A stretch of 64,000 nucleotides of DNA from Chiloscyllium plagiosum (taxonomy: Eukaryota): positions 49,112,021 to 49,176,020 of the forward strand of contig NC_057718.1 of assembly GCF_004010195.1 (NCBI RefSeq). Direction: 5' to 3'. Within the stretch, counting starts at the first letter, position 1; each line of letters begins with the position of its first letter. Under the pieces are notes generated by a model. It was not told where the DNA came from. It made no database searches and saw nothing but the letters and a program-made list of their open reading frames with translations. Position numbers and translations under genes: made by a program. Below are positions 5,913 to 64,000 of the stretch, one piece after another.

Positions 5913-5980
5913 CTATTTTCCTGCTCCTTGAATGCTGCCTGAACTGCTGTGCTTTTCCAGCACCACTCTAATCCAGAACC
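5913..5980 (+). mobile_element. PLE tail fragment (family A)
   Basis: cctgctccttgaatgctgcctgaactgctgtgcttttccagcacc; acctacc on both sides. Confidence 0.7.
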
Positions 5981-7136
5981 TACCTACCAATAACTATCCA
6001 GTCATGTCACATTCAATGTGGTCTTGACTTTGCCAACCTCTTGTGGAGTCTTGTTAATAATAGTGTAGAATGACCCTAATTTTGAGACCAGACAGAGACT
6101 CCATTGTCTATTTAACATGTTAGAACCGCCTCAAAGAACAAGTTAGATTAATCAGACATGGTTTACCCGTCACACATTTAAATTTTACTCTGACCTACTG
6201 CAAATTATTTGGATGTTCGGTCACTGCTTGTCAGGACACATTCAAATAACACCCCAAATTCATGCTAAACTGATGGATCTGAAGTTGCCCATTTTCTCCC
6301 ACCTTTTCTAATGGAGTGACATTTTCCAAATAGAATTCTGAAATCTAAGATTTAGAAAAATGACTTGCGGACCTGAAATTTTCAGACCTGTTTTCTTTAA
6401 CATCCTGAAGTGGAACTCACCAGCTTTGAGAGATTTGTCTATCTTCAGTCACACTATTTTCTCCATTACCATTTTTCAGAAAAATTAGGCAAACTGAGCT
6501 CTAGTCCCTTACCATAGTGGAAACACCAGCAGTACAAGAGGTTCAAAATACCAACTGAATACCCACCATTCTGGATTCTTCATCATCTTCAATGAAACCC
6601 TATTTCACACTTACTGTCCTTTTATCGAGTTAACATATAAAAACACATTTTTACTAATAGATTTTGTGTTCTTTACAAGCATTTTGCTGCATTTGATACC
6701 ATTCTAGTCAGTTAATTTCCACTTGATTTGCATTGTGTAAACCTGGTCTTTAAGGACGTCACTGCCTCATATCACTTGAACAGCAGAGTTGCTTAAAATA
6801 CAATAAAAAGAGCTTTGAATAAAAATCTTCCCCCGCCCTATAGTTTTTCTTATTTAAGAGAATTGTGAATGTTGGCCATTTGAAACTCAGCGGGTCTGAC
6901 AGCATCTGTAAAGACAGAAGCAGAGTTAACACTTCAAGTCCAGTGAACCTTAATCAGAACTAAAAGTAGCTGGGCTACTTACAGCATAAGTGGCAGTTAT
7001 GCTGATGACAGTGGAGGTGGGAATGGAATGTATGCAGAAGATGAAGGAGTGAGAAATCATATGCAAACAGAGTTTGCTCATAAGCCTAGAGAGTTGGGAG
7101 GGTGCTAACGTGAAGTGCAAATGATTGAGAATGCGT

Positions 7137-7302
7137 TGGTACAATGATAGTGTCTTGACTTTTGAGCAAAGAGGCCTGGATTCCGGAATAGAGTGGCGCT
7201 GGAAAAGCACAGCAGTTCAGGCAGCATCCGAGGAGCAGGATTCAAGTCCAAACTGCTTCAGAGGGATGTAATAACATCACTGAACATGTCGATTAGAAAA
7301 AT
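7137..7302 (+). mobile_element. Short tRNA-derived SINE-like element, split by a PLE tail (7184-7237)
   Basis: B-box-like ggattcaagtcc, body gtaataacatcactgaac...gattagaaaa; ggattc duplicated around the nested insert. Confidence 0.55.
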
Positions 7303-7351
7303 TCTGAACTCCCTGTAAGCAGACAGACATTGAATCTGTGCCTAGGATCTT

Positions 7352-7452
7352 ATGATACAGTGGTATTGTCTCTACCTCTAGGCCAGGAGATTTGAATTCA
7401 AGTCCCACCTGTCCCAAAGATTTTAAATACCTGAACAGGTTGATTGAAAAAA
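7352..7452 (+). mobile_element. Short tRNA-derived SINE-like element (second copy)
   Basis: cagtggtattgtctctacctctaggccaggag...aattcaagtcccacctg...ctgaacaggttgattgaaaa. Confidence 0.55.
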
Positions 7453-8259
7453 ACGTTTTTAATACTATGGTTATTTTGGTTTTGCACATGTGTAGCCTAA
7501 CAGATGAATATGCAGTGCTCTGAGCAGCCCATACATAAACTCCTATGGGTTTGGGGGGAAGGTAATGAGTGAAGAAGAGAGTGTGTTCATGGTTCTGAAA
7601 CTGTTAAACTCAAGTCCCGAGGCGATAAAATGTACCTCATAGTGGGTGCAAGATGAGATGCTATTCTTCCAGCTTACATTGAGCTTCACTGGAATACTGC
7701 AGCAGACCCGAGACAGAAATGCTGGTCAGAGAATACAGTGGTGTCTTGAAGTGGAAGGCAACTGAAACTCGAGGTCATTTTAAAGGATAGAGTGGAAGTA
7801 GTCTGTAAAGCAATCACGTAGTCAGCATTTCATCTCCCTATTGTGAAGGGAGATTACATTCTGTCCATAAATATGACGCTGAACTTCCAGCTGACCACCA
7901 CTGCAACACCCCATTGTATTCCCAGGTCAACCTTTCTCAGAGCTGCTGCAGTTATCCTGGGGAAAGAAAGCATTACCTTCCACCTAGTTACCATATAGCC
8001 TTCAGGGCTCAAACATGGAGTGTAACAATTTCAGAAAATGCACACACTCCTCAGTTTTCACTACCTTCCCCCAAACCCTCCAGCGTCCTGTTAGGTTTGG
8101 GCTGCTCGAGCACAGCCAACCCATTTATAACCATTTATATTTTACACTGGCACCTTTCTAAGAATTATCTCAGTCTCAGATTATCCTCAGTAATCTCTAT
8201 TTGCTAATCCTTTTCTTCTCTCTGTCTAGGCACGGTGTATTCTAAATTTCCACTCGAGA

Positions 8260-16853: not shown

Positions 16854-16979
16854 GAAGAAAGTGAGGACTGCAGATGCTGGAGATCAGAGCTGAAAAATGT
16901 GTTGCTGGAAAAGCGCAGCAGGTCAGGCAGCATCCAAGGAGCAGGAGAATCGACGTTTCGGGCATAAGCCCTTCTTCAG
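16854..16979 (-). mobile_element. PLE tail insertion (family A) with intact hammerhead core and 13-bp TSD
   Basis: gggactttaactt (16841-16853) / gggattttaactt (16980-16992); insert absent from the paralogous CR1 at ~27352. Confidence 0.85.
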
Positions 16980-16980
16980 G
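16948..16980 (-). ncRNA. Minimal type-I hammerhead ribozyme motif
   Basis: CUGAAGA-A-GGGC(UUAU)GCCC-GAAA-C-GUC; palindromic ACGU replaces stem III. Confidence 0.7.
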
Positions 16981-47950: not shown

Positions 47951-48339
47951 CTGCATCTCTATTTTATTTACATAGTTCTTTAAATTGATTTTTAAAAGAA
48001 TCCTACTTGGCCTTCAGATTGCAATATTTAAATATTTCCCCTGTTTACCTTCAGACTGAAAGTAACCTTTAATAAGATAGTGAAATTAGTAGCTTTCATG
48101 AAACAATGAAATAATGGTTTTCCAGTAATGTCACACTGTTGTGCGGGGGGCCCCCACCCCCAATCTTGCCCTGGACTTCAATTTATCCTGTTTTTCAAAA
48201 AAAACTTGACAAACTATGGCCTATAAAAACGCAAGGAAAAAAAATCTTCCCTCTGCAACGAATTCCCACGCTGCCTCCAAATTCCTCAAATTCACGCAGT
48301 CTGTATCTCAATCCAGATGTGATCACTCCTTCCCACTAT

Positions 48340-48700
48340 GCGCAACTTACTGCTTGAGGAATTCCAGCGATGATATCATGGGACTGACATGATGAACCTC
48401 CAACAACTACAACCATCTTCCTTTGTGTTATGTATGTCTCCAACCAGTGCAGAGCTTTCGCCTGACTCCCACTGGCTCCGGTTTTGTTCAGCCTCCTTGA
48501 GTGTTCACTTTGTCAAAGGCTGCATTGAGCCACTTTCACATCACTTCTGAAGTTCAGCTCTCTTGTTTGGACAAAGGCTATAACGAGGTCAGGAGATGAG
48601 CAGCACCCTTGAAAAATACACTGAGCACCAGGGAGCTGGTTATTATTGAGAAAATGCTGCTTGATTGCACTTTTAACAATCTCTTCCATCACTTGAGTTG
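48340..48700 (-). mobile_element. Older CR1/L2-group LINE RT fragment
   Basis: MEEIVKSAIKQHFLNNNQLPGAQ...PDLVIAFVQT; homologous to 57250-57600. Confidence 0.65.
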
Positions 48701-49487
48701 GAGTTTCTCTTTTGTTGGTTAGGAGCTTAAGGTGAGACAGATACCAGCCTGGAGAGATTTGTAACTTACAGGTAAAGTCACTTATTTCCATTTCCACGCA
48801 CCTTTCAACAGTTGCAAGGTCAAAGGCCCTTGAGCTGGTTATTTGACAGTCTTCCTGTCTAGATATGTGCTTGCTGTTTCTATACAAAATGGAAAGGAAC
48901 TTTCCAGTATTTGAATGAAATTACATTTATTGAAACTTAAAGCATTTACCCAAAGTGTTATTGAATAGGAATGTATTATGGTTTGCAAACCCTCCTCTTC
49001 TTTCTTCTTTAACTCTGAAGATTGCACATTACATGGTCAAACAAATCAATATTAAAAAGTTGAATGTTGGATGCAGAGATAATTAAGGAACAAACAGCAT
49101 CAGATATTCAAAACCTGTTCACAGTATTGTGGTATTTCTGTTACTGTTGACTGAAAACAGTAGCATTGAAAAGTGTGTACACAAGTTTAATGTATACTGA
49201 TAGTGGATATATACACAGGCTCAAAAAAAAGTTTCAGTGATCTCACAGAACTGCTATTGGAACTATTAGATTTCAGTGTTGTAACTCAGTCACACCCAGT
49301 TTCTGTTATGTCATTATTGTGAAGTCTGACAATTTCACACCGGAAGCTAATTTACCTGAGCCAAAGCATGCTAAACAATAAAGCAACTACATGTTTTACA
49401 AATTCTCTTGTAAAAATAAAAATTAGCTGAGTATAACATTAAGAGAATTGAATTAAAAGTAAATGTTTTAAAAGATGGACTTCACTC

Positions 49488-50312
49488 AATCTAGTCTACT
49501 GTATTCACTGCTCACAATGTGGTCACCTCTACACTGAAAAGACAAAGCACAGACTGGGCAACCACTTTTCAGAACGCCTACGTTCTCTCTGCAAAAAAGA
49601 CGCTGAGCTTCCTGTTGTCTGCCTTTTAACACACCACCGTGTTCCCTGGCCAACATTTCTGCATCAGCCTTGCAGCAGTGCTCCAATGAAGCTCAGAGCA
49701 AGCTGGAAGAACAACATCTTATTGTCTGCTTGAGGACACAGAAGTCTTCAGAATTCAATATCAAATTCAACAATTTTAGAGCCTGAGCACCTTTTCCCAT
49801 GTCCTTTCCCCAACCCCCACACACCACATCTTATCATCATATGGGCTGTTACACATAACCCATTCACTAATGGCCCCCATTAGCAGCTATTGTTTCTCCT
49901 AAACTCAATTCCTTTGTCTGTCCAACTGTGTTCTCTCTCTTTCTGGATTCCATTTCTACCTATTGTTTACTCCTCTCCTCCCCGCAACGCACCTTCAACA
50001 TATACAGAGGAACTTCGATTATCCTGCATTCGATTATCCGAATATCAGATTATCCGGCAAGATCGCAAGTACCCAATGCTTGGATAAACTATGTTATCTG
50101 GCATTGGATTATCCGGAATTTGTTTAAATGAACAAAATACTCCCCGCCCATGTCCTTCGGTTAATCAAGGTTCCTCTGTATACCAACCTTTTCCCAGCTA
50201 CAATCAGTTCCAAAGAAGGGTCACTAGACGCAAAATGTTAACTATGCTCTCTCTCCGCAGATGCTGCCAGATCAGCTGATTTTTTTTCCAGCAATTTCTT
50301 AATTTGTTTCTG
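49488..50312 (+). mobile_element. Penelope-like element 3' part: GIY-YIG endonuclease pseudogene + terminal region (family B) with decayed hammerhead motif
   Basis: NLVYCIHCSQCGHLYTEKTKHRLGNHFSERL...(frameshift)FNTPPCS...KLEEQHLI...FNIKFNNFRA*; agtt-CcaAAGA-a-gggtc-acta-gacgc-aAAA-t-gtt-aact at 50206-50243. Confidence 0.88.
50005..50178. mobile_element. pogo/Tigger-like MITE nested in the PLE
   Basis: TIRs cagaggaacttcgattatcc / ggttaatcaaggttcctctg (17/20 match); TA at 50003-50004 and 50179-50180. Confidence 0.85.
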
Positions 50313-50694
50313 AATCTCCCCTTATTAGATAATTTTCCAGCTGTGTCTGACTACTGGGGAGTTACATGTTTTAAAATATATGCCATTTTTGAAATGTTTT
50401 GAGTTATTTTTTCTTGTCAGTGATTGTGTGACTGAACAGTGGACTTCAGCCCAAGCTGACCTTTTATACAATAGTAGAGTCTCATAAGCACTTCTTGGTT
50501 TTACTTTACAGTTGCCTGCAGTCAATGGTAATTATACAAAACAATGTAAGCTTTTAGGCTTTTAATGATAAGGCATTTGAAGACATTTCCATAATGGGAA
50601 TGAAATAAAGAGAGAAGCTATTGTACCTTTTATTTCCTGTTTTCTCATGACAGTGATTTTAATCAATAGTTAGCCAGCAAAAAACATAAGTAAA

Positions 50695-50825
50695 ATTGAA
50701 GTAAAATGCTGTGGATGCTGAAAATCTGAAAAAAAACCCCCAAAGATGTTGAAAACACTTAGATGCTCTGTACAGAGACTGAAACAGAGTTAAGACTTGG
50801 GTTCAATGACCTTTCATTAGAATTG
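50695..50825 (-). mobile_element. PLE tail fragment (family B), decayed
   Basis: cagagttaagacttgggttcaatgacctttcattagaatt is the reverse of a degenerate hammerhead motif. Confidence 0.6.
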
Positions 50826-51149
50826 AGACAAAGTTGGAGATATTGTTGATTATAAACAAGCCAGAAGAGAAGTGGGTAAGAGGAACTGTTCCCAAATTAG
50901 TAAAACTGAGCATGTTTCTCCTAAATTAAAAAACTAAGATAGAAGTGATGGGAGATACTAAGGAGATTCTGAATCACCTGCAACCAAAATAAAAGAATGA
51001 TTTTATGAGCACCAGTATCTATTTTTTACAGACATAAATCAAATATTGTTGATGCTGGAAATGCAAAGTCTATTCTCAATTTATTTGATCTGCTCTGATT
51101 ACTGCTGCAGGTGATTTGGGCAAAATCAATTCTAGATCTCCACAGGCAG

Positions 51150-52850
51150 TTAGTCAGAAGCAGGGTGTCAGTTGGGCAGTCAAGAAAACCACAGGGTGCA
51201 TTTCACTCAAGAACAGATTTTCTCTGTGGGAAATCAATGAGAATGACAAGTTCTCTAGGGAGTGCAGCTTGAGCCCAACTGCACATGTAGGCGCAGAAAG
51301 AGAAGGAGAACAATAGTGTGAAGAAATTAAATAGTGAGGGTACATACAGACATTTCTGCAGCTGCAGATAACTTCAGCATTGTGCGTTGCCTCTCCAGGG
51401 CGGGGACAAGGATGTCACTCAAAGACTACAGGGCTTTCTGAATGGGGATGGTGATCAATCAGAAATCGTGGTCCACATTGGAACCAATGACATAGGTAGA
51501 AAGAGTGATGAGGTCAAAAGGAAGAATTTAGGGAGCTGAGTAACAAATTAAAAGCAGGATCTCGAAGATTGTAATCTCTGGATTACTCCCAATGCCTTGT
51601 GATTAGTGAGTATATGAATAGATTGATGGAACAGATTTTTTTAAAAAAGAAATTAGGAGACAAAGAGGGACCATGAGAAAACACTGGTGGGTCACATTAA
51701 GGAAAATTTAAAGGCATTTTATCTGTATATTATGTAAAAGAGAATAATCAGGGAAAAAAAATAGGACCCATTATGGACCAAGGTGACAATCTATGTGTGG
51801 AACCAGAAGATCTAGATGTGGTTTTAAATGAATACTTTGTAGCTATATTCAGTGTAGAGAAGGATGATGTAGTTAAAGAAGTAAGTGAGGGGGATTGTAA
51901 TATATTGGAACAAATTGTCATTGAGAGAGAGGAGTTATTAGAAGTTTAAATAGGCTTGAAAGTGGATAAATCCTCAGGGCCAGATGAGATATACCCCAGG
52001 TTTCTGTGGGAGGCAAGGAAGGATTTTGCAGGGACTCTGACATTAATTTTCAAAGCATCCCTGGCCACAGGAGGGATGCCAGAGGACTGCAGGACAGCTG
52101 ATGTACCATTTTTCAAGAAGGATGATGGGGTTTCTATAGGAATCGAGAAGCCAACGAGTCTAACTCTGTGGTTGGAAGCAATTGGAATAATTATGAGGGA
52201 GAGTTAATCTCCAGTTGGAGATATAAAGGTTAATCAAGAGTTGTCAGCATAGGGGAGATCAATGTCTAACATATATGATTGAATTGTTCGTGGAGGTGAC
52301 GAGGTGTGTGGATGGGGGCTGTACAGTTGATCTATTTCATATTGACTTTATTAAGGCTTTTTACAAGGTCTGTCATAGCAAACTAGTTAAGAAACTAAGA
52401 GCTCATGGGGCCCAGGGCAATTTAACAAAATTGGCTCAGTGACAAGAAGCAGAGGATGATGGTTGAAGGGTATTTTTGTGACTGGAAACCCTTTCCAATA
52501 ACATAACATTTGGTTCTGGTCCCTAGCTGTTTGTTGTGAACATTAATGATCTAGACATGAATATAGGATAGATGATCAGTACATTTGCAAATGACAGGAA
52601 TGTTGGTGGTTTGATAAATAATGACAAAGAAAGCTTTAGGTTATAGGACAATATTGATGGGCTGGTTCAGTTGAGTTGAACAGTGACAATGGAATTTAGT
52701 CCTGCAAAGTGTGAAGGGATGCAATTTGGGAGGAATAAGGGAAAGAAACACATGTTGAATGGCTAGGAAGTACAGGGGATCAGAGGATCTTATGCATGTC
52801 ATTAGATCCTGAAAAGAAGAAAGAAGGTTGTGTTAAGAAAGCGCAATGCA
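51150..52850 (+). mobile_element. Old CR1 LINE, internally deleted (esterase ORF1 + RT)
   Basis: VVHIGTNDIG, KVDKSSGPDEIYPRFL, DFIKAF, FAND. Confidence 0.82.
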
Positions 52851-54590
52851 ATTACTGGTACTGAGTCCAGAAGTGCCTCTCACATCAGAAAATTATCACA
52901 TGCCGCACAAAGAAACTCCATAGTGTAAGAGGGATATCTTGAGGTAGTAGCCCCAACAGACATAAATGTTGTACGAGGAACAATAATTTTAACAGAGTAG
53001 ACAGTGAAATAAAGACTACAAATCAATCCCAATCGCAAAGATTGAGTCACTGCCAGTAAACTTGAAGATAAACTAATAAGAATTGAAACAATGTTTGATA
53101 ATTGGAAAAAGTTTAGTTTATTCAGAGATAGCACATTAGGGTCAATCAGCCACATCACATAATGGATTTATATTGAAAAAACATGGGACTTATAAGGCTA
53201 AAGTAAAACTAGTTGCCTAGTTTTAGAGTATGACTAAATGTCACAGGTGCTAGACAGGAATCTTGTTGCTTGAAAAGTAAACACATAATTCTTCTTAACT
53301 ATTTTGGCCACGTGCTCGTGGGAGTGTAGGCTATTCAACACTAAAGCAGCATTATTGCAGGATAATACTTTACCAAGAGCAGTGTTTCTGAAATCATCCA
53401 AACAGCAACATATGCAGAAGGAAAGCTAATTTTACTTGTCAAAAATGTCTATGACCCATACGATATTTCCAGCATATGCTATTTTCCAATCAGGTTTTTG
53501 TTTTCTGAAAATAGGTTGTGTTCAAGAGCAGACCTACAATATATTTTGATGTAAAGGAAAGGATTGATCAAAGGAACTGTTTGGGCACGCTGATGACAAT
53601 TTATTCAAAGGAGACCTCCAAAGCTCACCAGAGGAAATGGGAGCAGGTGACCAGGGAGGCCAAATCCTGAACTCTGGCCTTGAGAATCTGGCAGCAATGT
53701 CACATTTGTAATGGCATTACAATGTATGGTCAAAATACATCTTCAAATTACATCTCCTGCCCTCCAGACCGTGAACATCTCCTATTGCTTCATGTACAAC
53801 ATCCTTGTCATTCAATCAAAGCAATCCTGGGGATTTAGGACTCAGTTCTATCGTTCAGACATTTCTCCCCAGTATACATTCCAATAACTCACATGCAAAA
53901 TTGGCTGATTCCACATACACCCAACTATTCAGTAATGGCAGGCACATCACCCAAATACAATGTGATATTCATTGATTTCTTCCGCTTCTCTTGCTTATCA
54001 AAATAGTCCATTACAGTAGAGTATAACGAGTGGAGGTCAGGGATGCCTGCACCTCCTGAACGACAGGAAGAGATGGTTCTCCACACAGCAAGACAATGGA
54101 GACAGCAGATTAGGTAACGTTTGGGATCCTGGCCTGTCCACTTCTTTTTGGCTGACCGGCCGCATCCTTTTTTAAAATTTTTTCTTCTTTAAAATTATTG
54201 TTATTTCATAATTTCACCTTTTGTGTCAAATTCATCCTTTCTTCTTCCTGCAGCTGAAGTGTGGCAGTTACAGTTGGACAGTCCCAAGTCCTTGGCAATT
54301 TCGATGGCCCCTGGTCCTCAGCGCTTCCCGTAGGTTCTGGTTCTTGGCAGTTTCAACGTGTCCGCAGTGCACAGTGCTTTTGGCAGGCCCCCGGTCCTTA
54401 GTGGTTTTGACAGGGCCCAGTCCTAGGCAGTTTCGACAGACCCATGGTTCTTGAGAGTTTCGAGAGGCCCGCCCCATTCTTGACAGTTGGCAAGGCCTCT
54501 GGTCCTCGGAAGTGACTGGTTTGTGAAACCAAGAGGCTGTGGAATGAACAAAAAATGATATTTGGCTTAACTTTGCCTTTTTTAAATATG

Positions 54591-54723
54591 ATTTGGAGAT
54601 GCCGGTGTTGGACTGGGGTGTACAAAGTTAAAAATCACACAACACCAGGTTATAGTCCAACAGGTTGAATTGGAAGCACACTAGCTTTCGGAGCAACACT
54701 CCTTCATCAGGTGATAGTCAGAC
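54591..54723 (-). mobile_element. PLE tail insertion (family D) with intact hammerhead core and 12-bp TSD
   Basis: tttttaaatatg at 54579-54590 and 54724-54735. Confidence 0.85.
54679..54713 (-). ncRNA. Minimal type-I hammerhead ribozyme motif
   Basis: CAC-CUGAUGA-A-GGAGU(GUU)GCUCC-GAAA-G-CUA-GUG: stem I CAC/GUG, stem II, palindromic AGCU in place of stem III. Confidence 0.75.
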
Positions 54724-54870
54724 TTTTTAAATATGTAAGTTATGTAATTATATGGCACTGTTTTTGTGGCAGCTTATACACATTTTACTCAATTTTCACA
54801 ATTACAAGTAATAATAACTTTCTATTCAATTTTCACAATTACAAGTAATAATAACTTTCTATCCATCTAC

Positions 54871-54871
<1 letters not shown>

Positions 54872-54934
<63 letters not shown>
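54872..54934. repeat. (CTAT)n microsatellite
   Basis: About 15 perfect tetranucleotide units; preceded by a 35-bp direct duplication (54790-54824 / 54827-54861). Confidence 0.95.
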
Positions 54935-56569
54935 ACCATGGGGCTTGCTGTGGCAGAGCCATTGGCATCTGACATTTTCAAGAACATTGATGACAGTGGT
55001 ACCCTTCTTCATGCACTTTCTCATTCCCTTGCTCACATTCATCCTGCTATATATATGTTGAGTAAAATAATATGACCACAAACCTTTGTTTTTCCACCCC
55101 ACCTTCCTTTCCTCATACCAACCTTCCTCTTTCTGTTCTTTTTCTGCTCTCAGATGCACAGGAACTACTGATTCCCAGTCACACAATACGCAGGAGGAAG
55201 TGAGATGGCTATTGTAAAGCTTTGATGAAGAGGCCTTGTGAATTGATCAAACATTCATAACCACCATCTCAGATGCATACATAACATGTATTCAGAGAAT
55301 AGTATGAGCAGGGATTTGTGCATGGTTAGTCATTGGGCGTGAATGAGCTGGACTCTGGTTAGGGAGTATTCTGTGTGCTAGTTGACTGGATGGCGATGGT
55401 TCAGACAAATTCTGGTGTAGTGGACCCAAATGAGATCTTCAATGAGACAATATAAAAGAGAATACTGGTGAGGATGCCCATGATGATTGACCTCCCTGTC
55501 ACGTTGTTGATCCAGAGGCATTGCAACAGTGACACCCCATGACTATGAACATACAAATTTGGAGCAGAAGGAGGTCATTTGACAACTTGAGATTGTCTGC
55601 CATTTGAGAAGTTTATGGCAGATCTGAATGTGGCCTCTTCTGTCCATATCTATACTCTTTGACTCCCTTTTCAATCAAGAATCTACTAAACTCAGCCTTA
55701 AAAATATTCAATGACAGTGTCTCTCTTGTTCACTGGAAAATAGAATTCCACAAATTAATAACTCTCTGAAAGAGAGAAAACAAATTCTCATTTTTGCCTT
55801 AAGTGAGAGATCCCTTCGTTTTAAACTATCTTCTCTAGTTCTAACCTCTTTTATAAGGTCTAACATAAGGACAGCATTCACCCTATCCAATCCCTTCTGG
55901 ATATTCCATTGCAATAAAGTCACCTTTCAATCTTCTAAACTCCAATGAATTCAGGTGCAATCTGTTCACCGCTTCCCCTCTTCATCCTGAAAATCAGCCA
56001 AGTCAATCTTTCCTGCACTGCTTCTAATGCAGTTATAGCCTTTGTTAAGGAGTCCTAAACTGTACAAGCCTCTCTGGATGTGGTCTCAATAATGCCCCAT
56101 GTCACTGCAGCAAAGCTACCTAACTTTTATATTCCTTGCAATAATAACAGCATTTCATTTGACTTCTTAATAGCTTCCTCTATGCCTACATACTGAATTT
56201 TTGTGATCCATGAAGCAGCGCGCTCAGATCTTTCTGCATGCAATCTATTATTTCTATTTAAATAATATATTGCTTTTCAATTCTTCCTGCCAATGTGAGT
56301 AAGTTCAGATTTTTTGACATTCTCCATCTGCCAAATTTTTTGCCCACTCCTGTAGCGTACCTATAGTCCTCTGCAGACTCCTTAGGTTTTCTTCAGAACT
56401 TAATTTCCTACATGTTGTCAGCAAGTTTAGCAACATTCAGTTCTTTCATCCAAGTCATTGATTTGGATTGTAAATTTTTGAAGCCCAACATCCCCTGCTA
56501 ATAATTGCGAACCCAAAAATGACACATTTATCCTTGCTTGCCGTTTCCTGTTTGCTGACCATCAATGCA

Positions 56570-58495
56570 AAAAAAATAAGGCTGAAGCATTTGCATCCAT
56601 CTTCAGTCAGAAACATTGAGGGGATGATCTATCTCCGTCTCAACCTGAGGTCTTCAACATTACTGATACCTGCCTTCACAGCCATTTCGATTTACTCCAC
56701 GCGATATCAAGAAACATTTGTAGACACTGGATTTTGAGATCCCTCCAGGCCCTGACAACATTCTGCCCTTGTGAAGACTTGTACTCCACAGCTGATTCCA
56801 GCTTCAGGTTACTGTCTATGTGGAGTTTGCACATTCTCCCTGTGTCTGCATGGATTTCCTCCGGGTGCTCTGGTTTCCTCCCACAATCCAAAGATGTGCA
56901 GGTCAGGTGAATTGGCCATGCTAAATTGTCCATAGTGTTCAGGGATGTATAGGTTAGGTGCATTAGTCAGAGGTAAATGTAGAGTAATAGGGTAGGGGAA
57001 TGAGTCTGGGTGGGTTACTCTTCAGAAGGTCGGTGTGGACCTGTTGGGCCGAATGGCCTATTTCCATACTGTAAGGATTCTATGATTCTACATAAAGAAC
57101 TAGTCACAACTTTGGCCAAGATGTTCCAGTACAGCTGCAACAATGGCAGTTATCCAACACTGAGGAAAATTGCACAGATACGTCTTGTACACACAAAAAA
57201 AAGACAAAGTCAACCTGACTAATTACACCCTATCAGTCTCATCTCAATGTTCAAATGATGGAAGGGGTCATTGACAGTGTTACCAAGTGACACTTCCAAA
57301 GCAATAATGTGCTCACTAATGCTCAGTTTGATTCTGCTAGGGCTACTCAGCTCCCGACCTCATTATTGCCTTGACACATGGATAACAGAGTTACATTCCA
57401 GGAGTGAGGTCACAGTGACTGGCCTTGATGTTATGACAGTATTCAAATGAGCTTGGCATCAAAAAACTGGAGCTGGAGTCAATAGGAATCAGGGAGAAAC
57501 ATTCTCCACTGATTAGTGTCATACCTAACTCAAAGGAAGGTGGCTGTGGTTGTTCGAGGTCAATCATCTCAGCAGGCATTTCTTAGGGTAGTGTTGTGGG
57601 CCCAACCATCATAAGCTGAGAAGTGGAGATGTTCGCTGATTATTGCACAATGTTCAACACCATTTGCAGACACTCAAAAAGCAGTTCATGTTCAAATGCA
57701 ACAGAAGAACCTATTCAGGCTTGGGTTCATATGTGGCAAGTGACATTTACACCACAAAGTACTATACAGTAATTATCTCCAACAAAAGGATAGCTTACCA
57801 TTACTCCTTATAAACATTAATGTTAAAATTAATTCCATCACTGTATCCCACACTATCGATGTCCTTGGGGTGGTCATTAACTAGAAACTGAACTGGTCTT
57901 GCCATCTTAATATTGTGGCTATAAGAGCAGATTGAGTGCTAGAAATTCTGCGGTGAATAGCTCACCATCAATCTCCCCTGTGTCTGTCCATTATTTACAA
58001 AGCACAGATCAAGAATCTGATTGAATGCACTCCTTAGCCTGGATTGGTGCAGCTCCAACAATATTCAAGCAGCCTAATACTATCCAGGATAAAGCATGTT
58101 ATCAATCTATCAATCACCTTTGACATTTTCTCCATCACATAATGGCAGTCGTAATTATCCTCTAAAAAATACAGTGCAGTAACTCACCAAGGTTCCTTCA
58201 ATAGTACCTGTCAAATCCATGACCTCTACTAATTTGATGGACAAGGAAACACCACCACCTCCAACTTCCCTCCAAGTCACACACCATCCTGACTTTGACT
58301 ATGTTTCTGTTCTTTCACTGTTGCTCGGTCAAAATCCTGGAATTTCCTTCCTAACATAAGTGTTCATATTCGTACACCCTGTGACTGCAGCACTTCAAAA
58401 AGGCAGCTCACCACCTTCTTCTCCAGGAAGAAAATGAGTGGACAATAATTGCTGCCCAGCTTTCAACATCTACATTCCATTAACACATTTTTAAA
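56570..58495 (+). mobile_element. Older CR1/L2-group LINE (RT + 3' end), interrupted by HE1
   Basis: NYTLSVS, agggtagtgttgtgggccca (GSVVGP), atgttcgctgat (MFAD); same family as 31550-32155. Confidence 0.75.
56796..57090 (+). mobile_element. HE1 SINE, 5'-truncated
   Basis: V-domain tggagtttgcacattctccc and tail. Confidence 0.88.
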
Positions 58496-58679
58496 AAAAC
58501 TCTATCCATGATAATATGTTCCCCCAGAATCTGTAATACCAGTAGTGATCTTTTATGTGACACCTTATCAAATGATTTTTTTGGAAATTCAGGTTCACTA
58601 CCTTTACAGGTTCGCATCTTTAGAAACATTGCCTATTCCTTCCTCAAATAACTCATTAAAACAACATTTCCCTTGTTGA

Positions 58680-58981
58680 TTTAGATTACTTACAGTGTGG
58701 AAACAGGCCCTTCGGCCCAACAAGTTCACACCAGCCGCCGAAGCGCAACCCACCCAGACCTATTCCCCTACACCTAACACTACGGGCAATTTAGTATGGC
58801 CAATTCACCTCACCTGCACATCTTTGGATTGTGGGAGGAAACTGGAACACCCGCAGGAAACCCACACAGACACGGGGAGAATGTGCACACTCCACACAGT
58901 CAGTCGCCAGAGGCGGGAATTGAACCCAGGTCTCTGGCACTGTAAGGCAGCATGGCTAACCACTGTGCCACCATGCCACCC
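58680..58981 (-). mobile_element. HE1 SINE, full length
   Basis: Same subfamily as 40636-40955. Confidence 0.92.
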
Positions 58982-58984
58982 ATA

Positions 58985-59056
58985 TGGCAGAAGATGGTTT
59001 CTATCCATTGACCTCTGGGTTATGGGCCCAGCACGCTCCCACAGCACCACACTGCT
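58985..59056 (-). pseudogene. tRNA-iMet(CAT) pseudogene
   Basis: Minus strand AGCAGtGTGGtGCtGtGGgAGCGTGCTGGGCCCATAACCCAGAGGTCaATGGATaGAAACCATCtTCTGCcA aligns without gaps over 72 nt to vertebrate initiator tRNA-Met (recalled sequence) with ~9 substitutions; B box damaged. Confidence 0.9.
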
Positions 59057-59977
59057 CCCAATACATAGTGGAGCCTTTTGGAGAGCCCCATTATCTCAGA
59101 CTTTGCCTGATTGCATTAAGATTTTCTCAGTGTCCTGTCACAATCTCTTCAATAGTGGATTCTATCAGTTTCCCATGACAAATGTTAGTGTAACTCACCT
59201 GTAGTTACCAACTTTCTGTCTCCCTCCTTTCTTGAAAAGAAAAAGTTACTTTCCAATCTAACGGACCTTTCCAGAATCTGGGGAATCCATTGTCGTCTTT
59301 ATGTGGACAGGTCACCAAATATTCAACACTCCACTCACATTCTCCACCACTTCAGACACTCACTACTGGAGGAAATATAGGTTTTTACATTGTTTTTTGG
59401 CAAGCAAAAAGTTAATGCTGGTGCATGAAGAGGTGTTTGCATTGATTGGGTTAGGTGTAAATAGAGGATATCATGTGATGATTAAGGGTAACACGTTTTA
59501 TGTAACTAGGCATTTATAGAGACAAAGGGTAAAAAGTTAGAACAATTCAAAATAATTACATGAAAAGTAGAACAATTTAAGATGATTGAGTCAGTATGTG
59601 GAATATACAATTTAGGAGACAGGAAAAGGACAATTTGAAATTACTTGGCAGTTTGATTTTTGATTAGATTGCTGAACTCTGATTGCAATGTTGCACTAAA
59701 AGTGGTACTGAAGAACAATCCAGATACACTTGCTGCATGCCTTAGACTTAATTATCTGTATTTCAGGGTGTAGCTCTTGATTGTATGTCAATGATGCATT
59801 GATGGAAATGTGTATTAATCATATCGATCATGCTATGAATGGTGTGAATATATTATTTTACCCAAACAGGGTTAGAGAGATACTGCATGCCAAAACTAGA
59901 AAGAGATAATGGGGCTCTCCAAAAGGCTCCAGTATATAGTTATACAGGTTAACAGAAGAAAGAAGAAAGAAGAGTTG

Positions 59978-60052
59978 ACTAGGAGGCCCAGGTTCAAGTT
60001 CCACTGGCTCTAGAGGAGTGTGTGAGAACATCTCTGAACAAGTTAGTTGGAA
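59978..60052 (+). mobile_element. Short tRNA-derived SINE-like fragment
   Basis: ggaggcccaggttcaagttccac...aacatctctgaacaagttag, similar to 7137-7302. Confidence 0.5.
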
Positions 60053-60282
60053 AGTGGTCAGTCTAGACTAGAACTAGCACCAACCTGTTTCCAGACTTCT
60101 GGCGAGAGCTAAGCCCTTGTGTGACTTAAAAAAAACCTATCCTTTGATTTTGCTTTAATTACATAATCTGCTTAATTTGTTGAAATGAAACTTACCAACT
60201 GCCAACCTTTTGTCTTTTCAGGAGGCTGAATAAATGTTCAAGTAATTTTTAGAATGTTAAACTTCAACATTCCTTGATACAT

Positions 60283-61020
60283 TAGAGTCATAGAGATGTC
60301 CAGCATGGAAATAGACCCTTCGGTTCAACACATCCAAGCTGGCTAGATATCCTTAATAAATCTAGTCCCATTTGCCAACATTTGGCCCATATCCCTCTAA
60401 ACTCTTCATATTAACATACCCATCCAGATGCCTTTTAAATGCAGTAATTGTACCAGTCTCCGCTTCCTCCTTCAGCTCATTTCATATACACACCACCCTC
60501 TGTGTGAAAAAGTTGCCCCTTGGATCCCTTTTAAATCTTTCCCCTCTCACCTTAAACCTATGTCTTCTAGTTTTGGACTCCCCACCCCAGGAAAAAGACC
60601 TTATCTATTTACCCTGTCCATTCCCCTTATGGCTTTATAAACCTCTATTTGTTCACCTCTCAGCTTCCAATATTCCAAGGAATATAGCGCAGCCTATTCA
60701 GCCTCTCCCTATAGCTAAATCCTCCAACCCTGGCAACATCCTTGTAAATCTTTTTTGAACCCTTCCAAGTTTCACAACAGCCTGCCTATAGCAGGGAGAC
60801 TAGAATTGCACACAGTATTCCAAAAGTGGCCAAACCAATGTCGTATATAGCCACAACATGATCTCTCAATTCCTTTAAAAAATGCACTGACCAATAAAAG
60901 AAAGCATATCAAATGCCTTCTTCACTATCCTATCTATCTGCGACTCCACTTTCAAGGAACTATGAACCTGCACTCCAAGGTGTCTGTTCAGCAACACTCA
61001 CCAGGATCTTACCATTAAAT
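60283..61020 (-). mobile_element. HER1/CR1 3' fragment
   Basis: Reverse complement of the 8260-8985 type sequence; gagtcatagag tail. Confidence 0.9.
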
Positions 61021-64000
61021 GCATGATTTCACAGTACTTCAGAAAATTTGTAATAGCAGACATTACTTTTACCTTACTTGCAAATTGGATGTCTCACCAA
61101 ATAAATGATGCTAATTCTGGACCACACTTACAGGTCTTTGATTACAAGCAAACAAATAGGTTGAAAGGACTTGTGTGATCTAAATTCAAATCTGTTGATA
61201 GCATTGGCTGATGTATTGATGGCATGAGTTGGCATGCTTTTGGTGCTCATCCAATGGAAGTGCAAATGTTGCATGGGGTATCCCAGTGACTGCACCAGGT
61301 TTCTCAGGATGCTTCTCTTGGTAGACCTTTGGCTTCACCAGAACATTACAGATACACGCACAACATACAAAAAAACAGAAGATGCAATTCTTGATACCAT
61401 TTGCTGCCGTTTTCTTTCAGTGGAGATCCTGGTTAACTCAAATATCTTAACTTTTTGGGAATGAATGAGATGTCTATTTCAAATTGAACCCAAAACAAGC
61501 TGATATATGCATCAATACCCAATGTAGATCTTTCTAACATTCAGAAATTTAGGCATTCACAATACAAAGGATGTTTCCCCAAAATTTCTATGCCTAAGCC
61601 TTCTTGGAAGATGGCAAACTTACAGAAATCGATTGTATGCCAACTTCAGCTACCAGCACCCCCAAGAGGGTCAGAGAACTCAGCAAACTTCCTCTTTTAT
61701 GTACTGGGAGATCTATAAAACCCATTGGACTATCTATTAGGTGAATAGAATAAAATGCAATTAAATTGTCTGAGAAAAATACCACTATATTACTTTTCTC
61801 ATAGTCACTGTGAACACAAACAGCGCATTCCATGGGAGGTAGGTGTCTGAATGACTGCATTGACAGTATTTATTGATGTTTTCCTCTAATACCTGACTGT
61901 GTGAGTCACATTAATTAAAGAGTGAAACCTACTTATAAAGAGTGTTCTTACCAATACTAATCACTAAATTAAAAAAATCGTAAAGCGGATTTTGTGCAGA
62001 ACAGAATTTATTCACTGCTAACCTTTTGTTACTTCTATTCATACACAAAAAAGACAATTAATCAGAAGTCTAGTTTTGAACATTAGCTGTGCTTGCTCAA
62101 CTGGCACTGAGTCAATTCATCCCCTGGCCCCACCAGAGAAAATTGAACATGTTTTATGCAAATTACAACGTGTTTTGATATGCACTTGGAATTGTAATTT
62201 CAAAGTGATGACCAGAGAGCATTGTCATCTCATGCATACAAAGCAAGTACCATGATGTAACAGTTAAAAATAAATGTAGACCTACCTTACAACAGAGTGT
62301 CATTGAAGTGAAAGGTCTTTTATTCACTGGGATCCGTGAACATCCCCATCTTGTATATTTTCCTTCAGGAGAAGAAATATCACATCTTTGTTGAGTGCAC
62401 ATAATTTTACTCTACAGCTAGCATATTGCTAAAATTTCACTTCCCAGCTCATTCACTGTGATCTTGAGTATGAGCATTATTTTAGCACAGTCAGTTAAAG
62501 TTCTCCACACCAACAACATACTCTTACTTACAATTCAGAATAATTATTTTATAGAGTTGTAGGGTAAGCTGGTTAACAACTACCAGATGTAACCACACAT
62601 ACCTGAATTAAACATTAGAATCCATTGGGCACAGGACATTGAAACCTTTTAACACTCCAACTAATGAATAAACAGATGGGCACACTGACAGCTTTGTATA
62701 AGCCTGCTTAGATTAAACCTCTGTGTATTAGGTGTGGGTCAGTAATAACAGTCGTTTTGTTTTGTGGTTAGACTTTTAGGAAAGAATATGGTTTCATTTA
62801 TCTGAGGATGAAACACAAACACCAAGAAAAGCCATCAAACATGTCGGTTGATACCCAGACCACAAGTGCAGTGGCAATGCTTCATTAGCTTCAAACTATA
62901 TTTGTTCTACCATTCACTTACTGAGCCCCTTCAACGGGACAGAAGAAAAAATGTCAATGAGAAAAATGTTTTATTTTAAAAATTATTCAGCATTTTAACT
63001 GGATGAGTTCAAACATCACAGATTCTTTGCCTGTCAATGAGATGAAATCTTGGCTAAATTTTCCACGGGGAATCAGATGGCTTTATATTTCAAAACATTA
63101 AAGTCTATTAATTTATAGGTGCAATTCCTGGAATGTATTAACTGTTATTTGTAACTGTAACATGGGTTTGGTGTTATGAAACACAGTGCTGATGTTAGTC
63201 AAAAGCATTACCATTGATTTAAGATAATTAGAGATAACTGCAATATCATTACTGCAGAATGGTGATTGTCAGAAAAGTAAAGCAAACAAATTATTTTGCA
63301 GTGTTCAAGTAGAATTAGAAGGGAATTAAAGGCCTAGTGTATACAATTCAGCATCATTGTTTATTTGCAATATCTCTCTTTCTTCTGTGTCTGTTCTGAA
63401 TTGAATTGTTTCAATGAATGATGTCATTGGTGGAATGATGAGTTGTGTGCAACAGGTCTGACAATGGTTGTGATATAAGATAAGGAGAAAGGATAAGCAA
63501 CCAGGCAAGATAATTACAGTGAAAAATGGCCTCCACTGTATTAGCTAAAGCTCTTTTATTCATTTTTTTTTGTTTGCACGTTCAGTGAACTTTAGTATCA
63601 AAGTGCTAACGTAAAGAGTGAATCACCAGCAGAATCACTTTGATTGTATTCTTCATGGTGAGGTCATTTTCTGTCATCTCTGGTCAGCAGCCTGGTAGGG
63701 GAGTCAGCACTAACTGTACTTTTAACAAAAAAGTGGAATCAATGTGACAGTCCATCTGCACCGTGTCATAAGCTAATTCCCAATCTTTTAAATATCTACC
63801 TTATTTTCACTTCACCTTTTCCAAACTCTCTGCTAACCTATGTGCTTGTGCAAAAGTCAAGCTGCTGAGTTTAAATTTTTAGCCAAAAATAGGAAACTGA
63901 CTGATACGTGAGTGATACATTCAAAGAGTTGAAATCTATCCACTTTCACCATCTCGTTACATAGTATTTTACAGCAGTACATCAGCACTTTGTACAGTTC

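Follow-up and report, generated by a model that had tools for sequence, protein, structure and literature searches.

A short hammerhead-bearing insert in the Chiloscyllium plagiosum genome is probably a copy of a Penelope-like element mRNA leader

The 133-bp hammerhead-bearing insert in our window of the Chiloscyllium plagiosum genome (the whole 64,000-nucleotide stretch analyzed) is probably a promoterless cDNA, running from cap to AUG, of the first about 130 bases of the uncleaved and probably capped mRNA of a Penelope-like element (PLE). We give this reading of the sequence data a probability of roughly 0.7. It draws on this genome and one relative's RNA reads, and follows from a pile-up of copy 5' ends at -10..0, a TATA motif 30-32 nt above the A at -8, an excess of G at the junction, and a poly(A) site within the repeat.

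The insert is bracketed by a 12-bp direct repeat, tttttaaatatg, at 54579-54590 and 54724-54735. In copies of the host repeat elsewhere in the genome, the flanks are joined with one copy of the duplicated stretch in seven of seven cases, and these empty sites indicate that the duplication arose upon insertion. The element sequence reaches 54588, so that three nucleotides of the duplication (C-A-T on the minus strand) are shared with the element. At the 5' junction, 54719-54723 are letters foreign to the parent element; the same five letters, G included, stand ahead of the element at another locus (L214). The sequence of 54588..54718 is also found ahead of the ORF in L091, L200, L202, L199, and L201. 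The window copy and copy L008 differ at three positions: 54698, where the change turns a stem II pair into U-G; 54695, in the loop; and 54667, in the poly(A) hexamer. The insert lies within an old repeat (window about 54230-54935) that matches dozens of loci at 68-88% identity, contains internal repeats of 26-27 bp, and ends in a TATC microsatellite; in sequence, it resembles the 3' terminus of a non-LTR element. Among the ORFs listed from sequence at window 48000-64000, none close to the insert was identified as a host gene.

Table 1. Features of the insert and its target site in window coordinates, in minus-strand order.
Feature	Positions	Strand	Basis or remark
Target-site duplication, element's 5' side	54724..54735	.	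single copy in 7/7 empty paralogues
Four non-element letters, 5' junction	54720..54723	-	parent comparison
Non-parental G before putative transcription start	54719..54719	-	C in full-length copies; likely cap-derived
Copy of putative mRNA 5' leader	54588..54718	-	from A 8 nt before ribozyme core to AT of the ORF's ATG
Minimal type-I hammerhead	54679..54713	-	architecture as in PMC4209133
Hammerhead stem I	54711-54713/54679-54681	-	sequence
Hammerhead CUGAUGA box	54704-54710	-	sequence
Hammerhead bulged A	54703	-	sequence
Hammerhead stem II	54690-54702	-	sequence
Hammerhead GAAA box	54686-54689	-	sequence
Hammerhead palindrome AGCU	54683-54686	-	sequence
Predicted hammerhead cut	54682/54681	-	sequence
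Poly(A) hexamer position	54665..54670	-	ATTAAA in family; mutated at 54667 in window copy
Family poly(A) addition site (+57/+60)	54650..54653	-	mapped on L202 with relative's reads
GU/U-rich stretch below poly(A) site	54630..54647	-	sequence; putative downstream element
Pseudo-LTR end, also the boundary of tail-less copies and inverted arms	54623..54627	-	first putative RT start
PLE tail, about 37 nt, ending at ORF start codon	54588..54624	-	second putative RT start; 67/84 copies
Target-site duplication, element's 3' side	54579..54590	.	54588-54590 match element too

The minus strand of the insert reads CAC-CTGATGA-A-GGAGT(GTT)GCTCC-GAAA-GCTA^GTG (C3 at 54710, A17 at 54682, G1.1 at 54681) and has the core boxes, stems I and II, and palindromic 15.2-16.2 pair of a minimal type-I hammerhead. 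A strict minimal-hammerhead descriptor matched this motif, at 54679..54713, and no other in the whole window. Across about 800 kb of fetched loci, which are by design enriched for this PLE family, the descriptor had 174 matches versus 0 in each of five shuffles, and the palindromic pair is present in 162 of the 174. The basic anatomy reported in the earlier note therefore holds, both the 12-bp TSD around a 133-bp insert (the repeat coordinates match and the seven paralogues are empty sites) and the minus-strand hammerhead string with its predicted cut at 54682/54681 (confirmed by reading the sequence and by the strict descriptor). An Rfam scan did not detect the hammerhead at 54679..54713 and returned only two unrelated matches (E 6 and 8.1), and folding of the whole leader gave a stability that was not unusual (z -1.03 and +0.96).

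The fetched loci contain at least five hammerhead families that share the core, differ in stems I and II with pairing kept, and carry AGCU or ACGU as palindrome; in this between-family comparison, the invariant core is imposed by the descriptor itself. The stem differences with the core kept argue for selection on the hammerhead in master elements, as judged from sequence. The earlier note had proposed preferential core conservation across copies as a check, which failed: in copies of subfamily A, core mismatches amount to 7.4% versus 2.2% elsewhere, a difference inflated by the nearby 5' junction. Missing conservation among copies is expected, since copies are dead on arrival. Neither copy ends nor RNA read ends from a relative (run X21, a poly(A) single-cell library) piled up at the predicted cut site. 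Cleavage by published minimal hammerheads is weak, in dimers or with protein (PMC4209133, PMC6765202, PMC11167929), and cutting here would require a partner copy or protein; the single window copy, with U-G in stem II, is likely inert.

It is close to certain from sequence comparison that an abundant Neptune-type PLE is the source of the insert, which comprises that element's pseudo-LTR and tail. The 3.56-Gb genome contains 17,357 exact matches to the ribozyme-core pattern and 18,278 to the tail pattern, counted as arms rather than insertions, and reversed controls gave 0; an early search biased to the window copy (1,447 candidates and their 30 loci) was left out of these counts. Walking upstream from short copies led to three long ones (L091, L200, L202) with the order pseudo-LTR, tail, ATG, RT, C-x4-C-x2-C linker, endonuclease, 3' UTR, pseudo-LTR. 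As in EN+ PLEs, there is a single ORF with RT followed by a C-terminal GIY-YIG nuclease, though all copies seen are broken or gapped; in these three copies the window sequence lies within the pseudo-LTRs flanking the ORF; and a tail of about 37 nt at one end (30-40 bp in EN+ PLEs) is accompanied by an inverted 5' partner and a variable TSD. The parent copies with an RT and endonuclease ORF thus bear out the earlier note's proposal of a PLE-type minimal hammerhead retrotransposed with a TSD.

ORF pieces matched RVT_1 (Pfam, E 3.5e-9), and the endonuclease piece shares 45% identity with a turtle protein across the latter's GIY-YIG region (P0006, E 6e-20); Pfam GIY-YIG had no match on this genome's own ORF pieces. 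Of 33 homologues of the ORF, most contain RVT_1 and several GIY-YIG; in an alignment with an intact one (P0002), residue 1 falls on the ATG that immediately follows the tail. The ORF translations contain a DKG motif (ADKGG) and, within the GIY-YIG core, two cysteines (VYLIRCRQGCPEAWYIGET), while the linker CHGGRCKTC in L051, L197, and L202 fits the CX2-5CxxC of Neptune. This linker is common to Neptune and Nematis and absent in Penelope/Poseidon (PMC8557442), and among PLEs, vertebrates are reported with only Neptune and Poseidon (bioRxiv 10.64898/2026.07.22.740005). The DKG motif, linker, and nuclease cysteines agree in fitting a Neptune/Nematis placement. Three turtle proteins annotated as zinc-finger genes (P0008, P0010, P0011) also contain the PLE RT region and are probably mis-annotated PLE insertions or fusions. 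The L202 copy is surrounded by a 1,661-bp perfect inverted duplication (L202:245-1905 and 6341-8001) beside N runs, which may be an assembly artefact.

The insert could instead belong to a non-autonomous retroelement in its own right, resembling a retrozyme or SINE, which would be transcribed and amplify by itself with PLE enzymes, an explanation close to the separate family proposed in the earlier note and one we consider very improbable. There are thousands of short copies of similar length, as such an element would produce, and animal retrozymes derive from PLE pseudo-LTRs (bioRxiv 10.64898/2026.07.22.740005). However, the short copies have no TATA box and varied junctions, occur in both subfamilies (21 in A, 18 in B), and are mixed with long copies on a tree (19 changes vs 19.4 shuffled), though this is weak evidence given the low resolution of its 121 columns. 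Furthermore, the window copy holds sequence from both sides of the cut site, and a second same-strand hammerhead lies within 600 nt at just 2 of 100 loci. The non-LTR retrozyme, built of tandem units each with a hammerhead, was rejected as a candidate on this last count and on the single motif in the window.

Copy ends were examined in the first 100 tail matches on contig C1, a sample that required the exact motif and was not selected otherwise. Among 84 anchored copies, 67 have their 3' end within 3 nt of the first base of the ATG and 83 within 9, and one runs into the ORF. Inverted arms start at the pseudo-LTR end, without the tail. Duplications of at least 8 nt were found in 46 copies, about 10 of which look like chance matches, and 30 of the 46 duplications, 9-16 bp in length, adjoin a tail-less inverted arm. 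In the anole element, two RT start sites bound the tail (PMC11167929), and the 3' ends of the copies here, at the pseudo-LTR end and the ATG, match these two sites of PAc (PMC11167929). TSDs in L094-L193 frequently overlap the element's 3' end by 1-3 nt, an overlap that may arise by chance.

The 5' ends, numbered from hammerhead C3 (A at -8 and G at -9 in the window copy), are concentrated at -10..0, where 39 of 70 arms at risk end (5.06% per nt), compared with 0.75% per nt at -40..-11, 0.12% at -110..-41, and 1.25% at +1..+10. On both strands together, 80 of 131 arms end at -10..0 and 11 at -37..-11, and 40 are long. Twelve of the 80 end exactly at -8, and most short copies end 1-7 nt inside it. 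The earlier note's "heavily truncated" thus fits the size of the insert but not its 5' end, which belongs to a pile-up rather than a random distribution. Since 31 of 100 direct arms go beyond -10, and the parental C at -9 has 22,114 matches, a second route to long copies must exist. The ends inside -8 and the long arms both count against the leader-copy reading.

Around the cut site, only 1 of 86 arms ends (0.13% per nt), indicating that the copied templates were not cut at this ribozyme; the insertion template of the anole element is likewise uncut (PMC11167929). This count also argues against a 5' end made by ribozyme self-cleavage or by splicing, which we regard as the least credible explanation. 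In D. virilis, an intron end maps to helix I (PMC4209133), and an intron ending there could produce a comparable boundary; here, the parent has no AG acceptor directly before -8 and the junctions share no common upstream exon.

In long copies, TATAAAT starts 30-32 nt above the A at -8, which stands in a TCCA(C) context resembling an initiator. We take these to be a TATA box and an initiator by comparison with consensus sequences. The TATA pattern matches 8,637 times; subfamilies differ in spacer sequence among the first 100, and match length is 47-49 of an allowed 44-52. The window copy carries a non-parental G at 54719 (position -9). Genome-wide, 4,746 matches have a letter other than C at -9, and the first 100 comprise 67 G, 21 T, and 12 A, versus 30 G, 42 T, and 28 A in 100 matches at control position -7 (both hand counts; Fisher p 2.6e-7). 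By class, the first 90 non-C cases include 16 mutated long copies, 13 of them with T; 22 whose letter might come from an inverted arm (20 G); and two classes in which it can come from neither parent nor arm, namely 22 with an inverted arm and extra letters (20 G, vs 27% expected) and 30 solo copies (G in 15, vs 27% expected), among them a few divergent long copies. The 22 cases that an arm might explain and the lower share of G in solo copies tell against the cap reading. An extra G marks capped full-length L1 cDNA, in which the cap is copied (PMC11702581). We infer from these sequence patterns that the A at -8 is the transcription start and the G at -9 a copied cap.

Ordinary 5' truncation of copies begun at the 3' terminus of a transcript, either long or read-through, is an unlikely alternative source of the short copies. 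The wall would then reflect RNA structure or fold-back at the palindromic 5' edge of the ribozyme, through self-priming and possibly antisense RNA, much as self-priming on antisense RNA was proposed for rotifer PLEs, in whose pseudo-LTR TATA and initiator-like motifs likewise occur (PMC3846280). Strong 5' truncation and inverted partners have been described for PLE insertions (PMC8557442, PMC3846280), long copies with tails exist, and 10 of 131 arms end at -5, within an imperfect palindrome (-5..+4) that may add fold-back junctions. However, a structural stall would be expected 3' of the stems, not 8 nt 5' of the core, and the wall is common to solo copies. Truncation also leaves the position-specific G and the TATA spacing unexplained, and sense reads exceed antisense several-fold across the repeat (run X21, L202).

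For a second, unrelated hammerhead family, the genome contains 21,900 matches in which A or G stands ahead of the family's own 5' A. None of 30 junctions inspected by eye has long parental upstream sequence, and G occurs in 16 of 24 junctions not supplied by an arm vs 43% expected, an apparent repeat of the pattern seen at -9 in the first family. In the window, this family (stem II GGGC, palindrome ACGU) lies at 16856-16980 on the minus strand, with related pieces near 5915, 7190, 12300, 40320, 43140, and 47050; its long copies have a TTTATCT-like motif about 32 nt upstream. A decayed hammerhead-like motif at window 1958 (minus strand) resembles a third family, with GGGT in stem II, that L156 and L181 also contain.

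A poly(A) site within the repeat had been predicted beforehand on the basis of the GU-rich stretch and the hexamer at +40. In run X21, poly(A) follows +57 of L202 in 352 reads and +60 in 407; these reads stem from many genomic copies, and such a 3' poly(A) library cannot reveal start sites. Neither a start pile nor an end pile was listed for L202 in this run. The site precedes the RT start sites at +85 and +121, which would therefore be present only in 5' leader, read-through, or circular RNA. At L202:2620-2860, depth upstream of the ribozyme is 400-790 with poly(A) at the element's site (run X21), which suggests that PLE copies end many transcripts with an uncut hammerhead.

If the insert is a leader copy, the endonuclease would have nicked the AT-rich target site, and the nick would have primed synthesis at the ATG-proximal site, with a 3-nt match to the target in the window copy. 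RT would start at the ORF start codon, pass the uncut ribozyme, and reach the first base of the mRNA and its cap; the cDNA would then be joined with four extra letters as the 12-bp duplication formed. With poly(A) upstream of both RT start sites, processed mRNA would offer these sites only in its 5' leader, making short leader copies the default product. In PAc, RT initiates internally at the tail ends, the RNA 5' end sets product length, and insertion proceeds without the ribozyme (PMC11167929). In D. virilis, the internal promoter of Penelope lacks a TATA box and the element contains an intron (PMC2377424), so the TATA/start layout is not universal.

More tentatively, and with less than even odds, PLE pseudo-LTRs may work as U3-R-U5: RT would run from the 5' leader to the cap, after which the 130-bp strong-stop copy would integrate, or a jump (or ribozyme-made circle) to the 3' repeat would regenerate the pseudo-LTR. 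In 2 of 30 solo copies (L266, L272), internal ORF sequence is followed immediately by the leader from -8, both in one orientation, which suggests template jumps from the RNA 5' end. At six loci (L006, L209, L215, L233, L259, L305), the initial bases of the leader recur ahead of the 5' junction as short direct repeats that end in G, as if the cDNA end had re-annealed to G in the RNA.

Minimal hammerheads in PLE repeats are already published, at thousands per genome, and the element itself is ordinary. The open-access literature searched gave no account of this PLE family or of a cap-to-AUG product, and the searched passages of PMC6155905 and PMC10018344 hold nothing specific to the family. The useful part is the junction record, a clue to the replication of a poorly understood class: the rebuilding of pseudo-LTRs by PLEs was called unexplained in 2008 (PMC2377424), and PLE steps after RT initiation remain unvalidated (PMC11167929). 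If the leader copy is dominant and poly(A) lies upstream of the RT starts, a complete element can be transposed only by way of read-through RNA, a template jump, or a circle. Likewise, if the cap-to-AUG reading is true, the ribozyme lies 37 nt from the cap and cutting there would decap the mRNA. PLE copies can also donate poly(A) sites to transcripts.

In LTR retrotransposons, with their U3-R-U5 order, the first cDNA, minus-strand strong-stop DNA, is a copy of the 5' leader. The proposed order of promoter, start, poly(A) site, and RT start is alike in the PLE leader here, an analogy rather than membership: the PLE leader would be target-primed, with no tRNA primer or integrase, and strand transfer is hypothetical. 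Among hammerhead systems, the motif here shares with the metazoan PLE minimal hammerheads of Cervera and de la Pena 2014 (PMC4209133) a short stem I, a bulged base between 9 and 10.1, G10.1-C11.1, and palindromic 15.2-16.2; the searchable supplement file of that paper contains no shark motif. Those hammerheads occur for the most part as scattered single motifs, "probably related to truncated PLEs" (PMC4209133), whereas the solitary motifs here have a defined, non-random 5' end. The non-LTR retrozymes (bioRxiv 10.64898/2026.07.22.740005) resemble the window copy in being non-coding and PLE-derived with a type-I hammerhead, but are defined by tandem units, while the window copy is single and of no separate lineage.

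PAc (Poseidon, green anole; Frangieh 2024, PMC11167929) provides a parallel from an in vitro system: its ribozyme is uncut in the insertion template, and both target strands are extended, matching the direct and inverted arms here. Its ORF begins inside the ribozyme with the tail within the ORF, whereas here the tail ends at the ATG; no homology at priming is reported for PAc, while short overlaps, which may arise by chance, are common here. Our family is closest to the Neptune clade of EN+ PLEs (PMC8557442), with which it shares a single ORF with DKG, RT, a CX2-5CxxC linker, and, at the C terminus, a nuclease of GIY-YIG type whose motif includes two cysteines, together with pseudo-LTRs, a 30-40 bp tail, an inverted 5' partner, and a variable TSD. 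A putative TATA/Inr start 8 nt before the hammerhead and a poly(A) site inside the pseudo-LTR, as in the family here, are not among the Neptune features in the passages searched.
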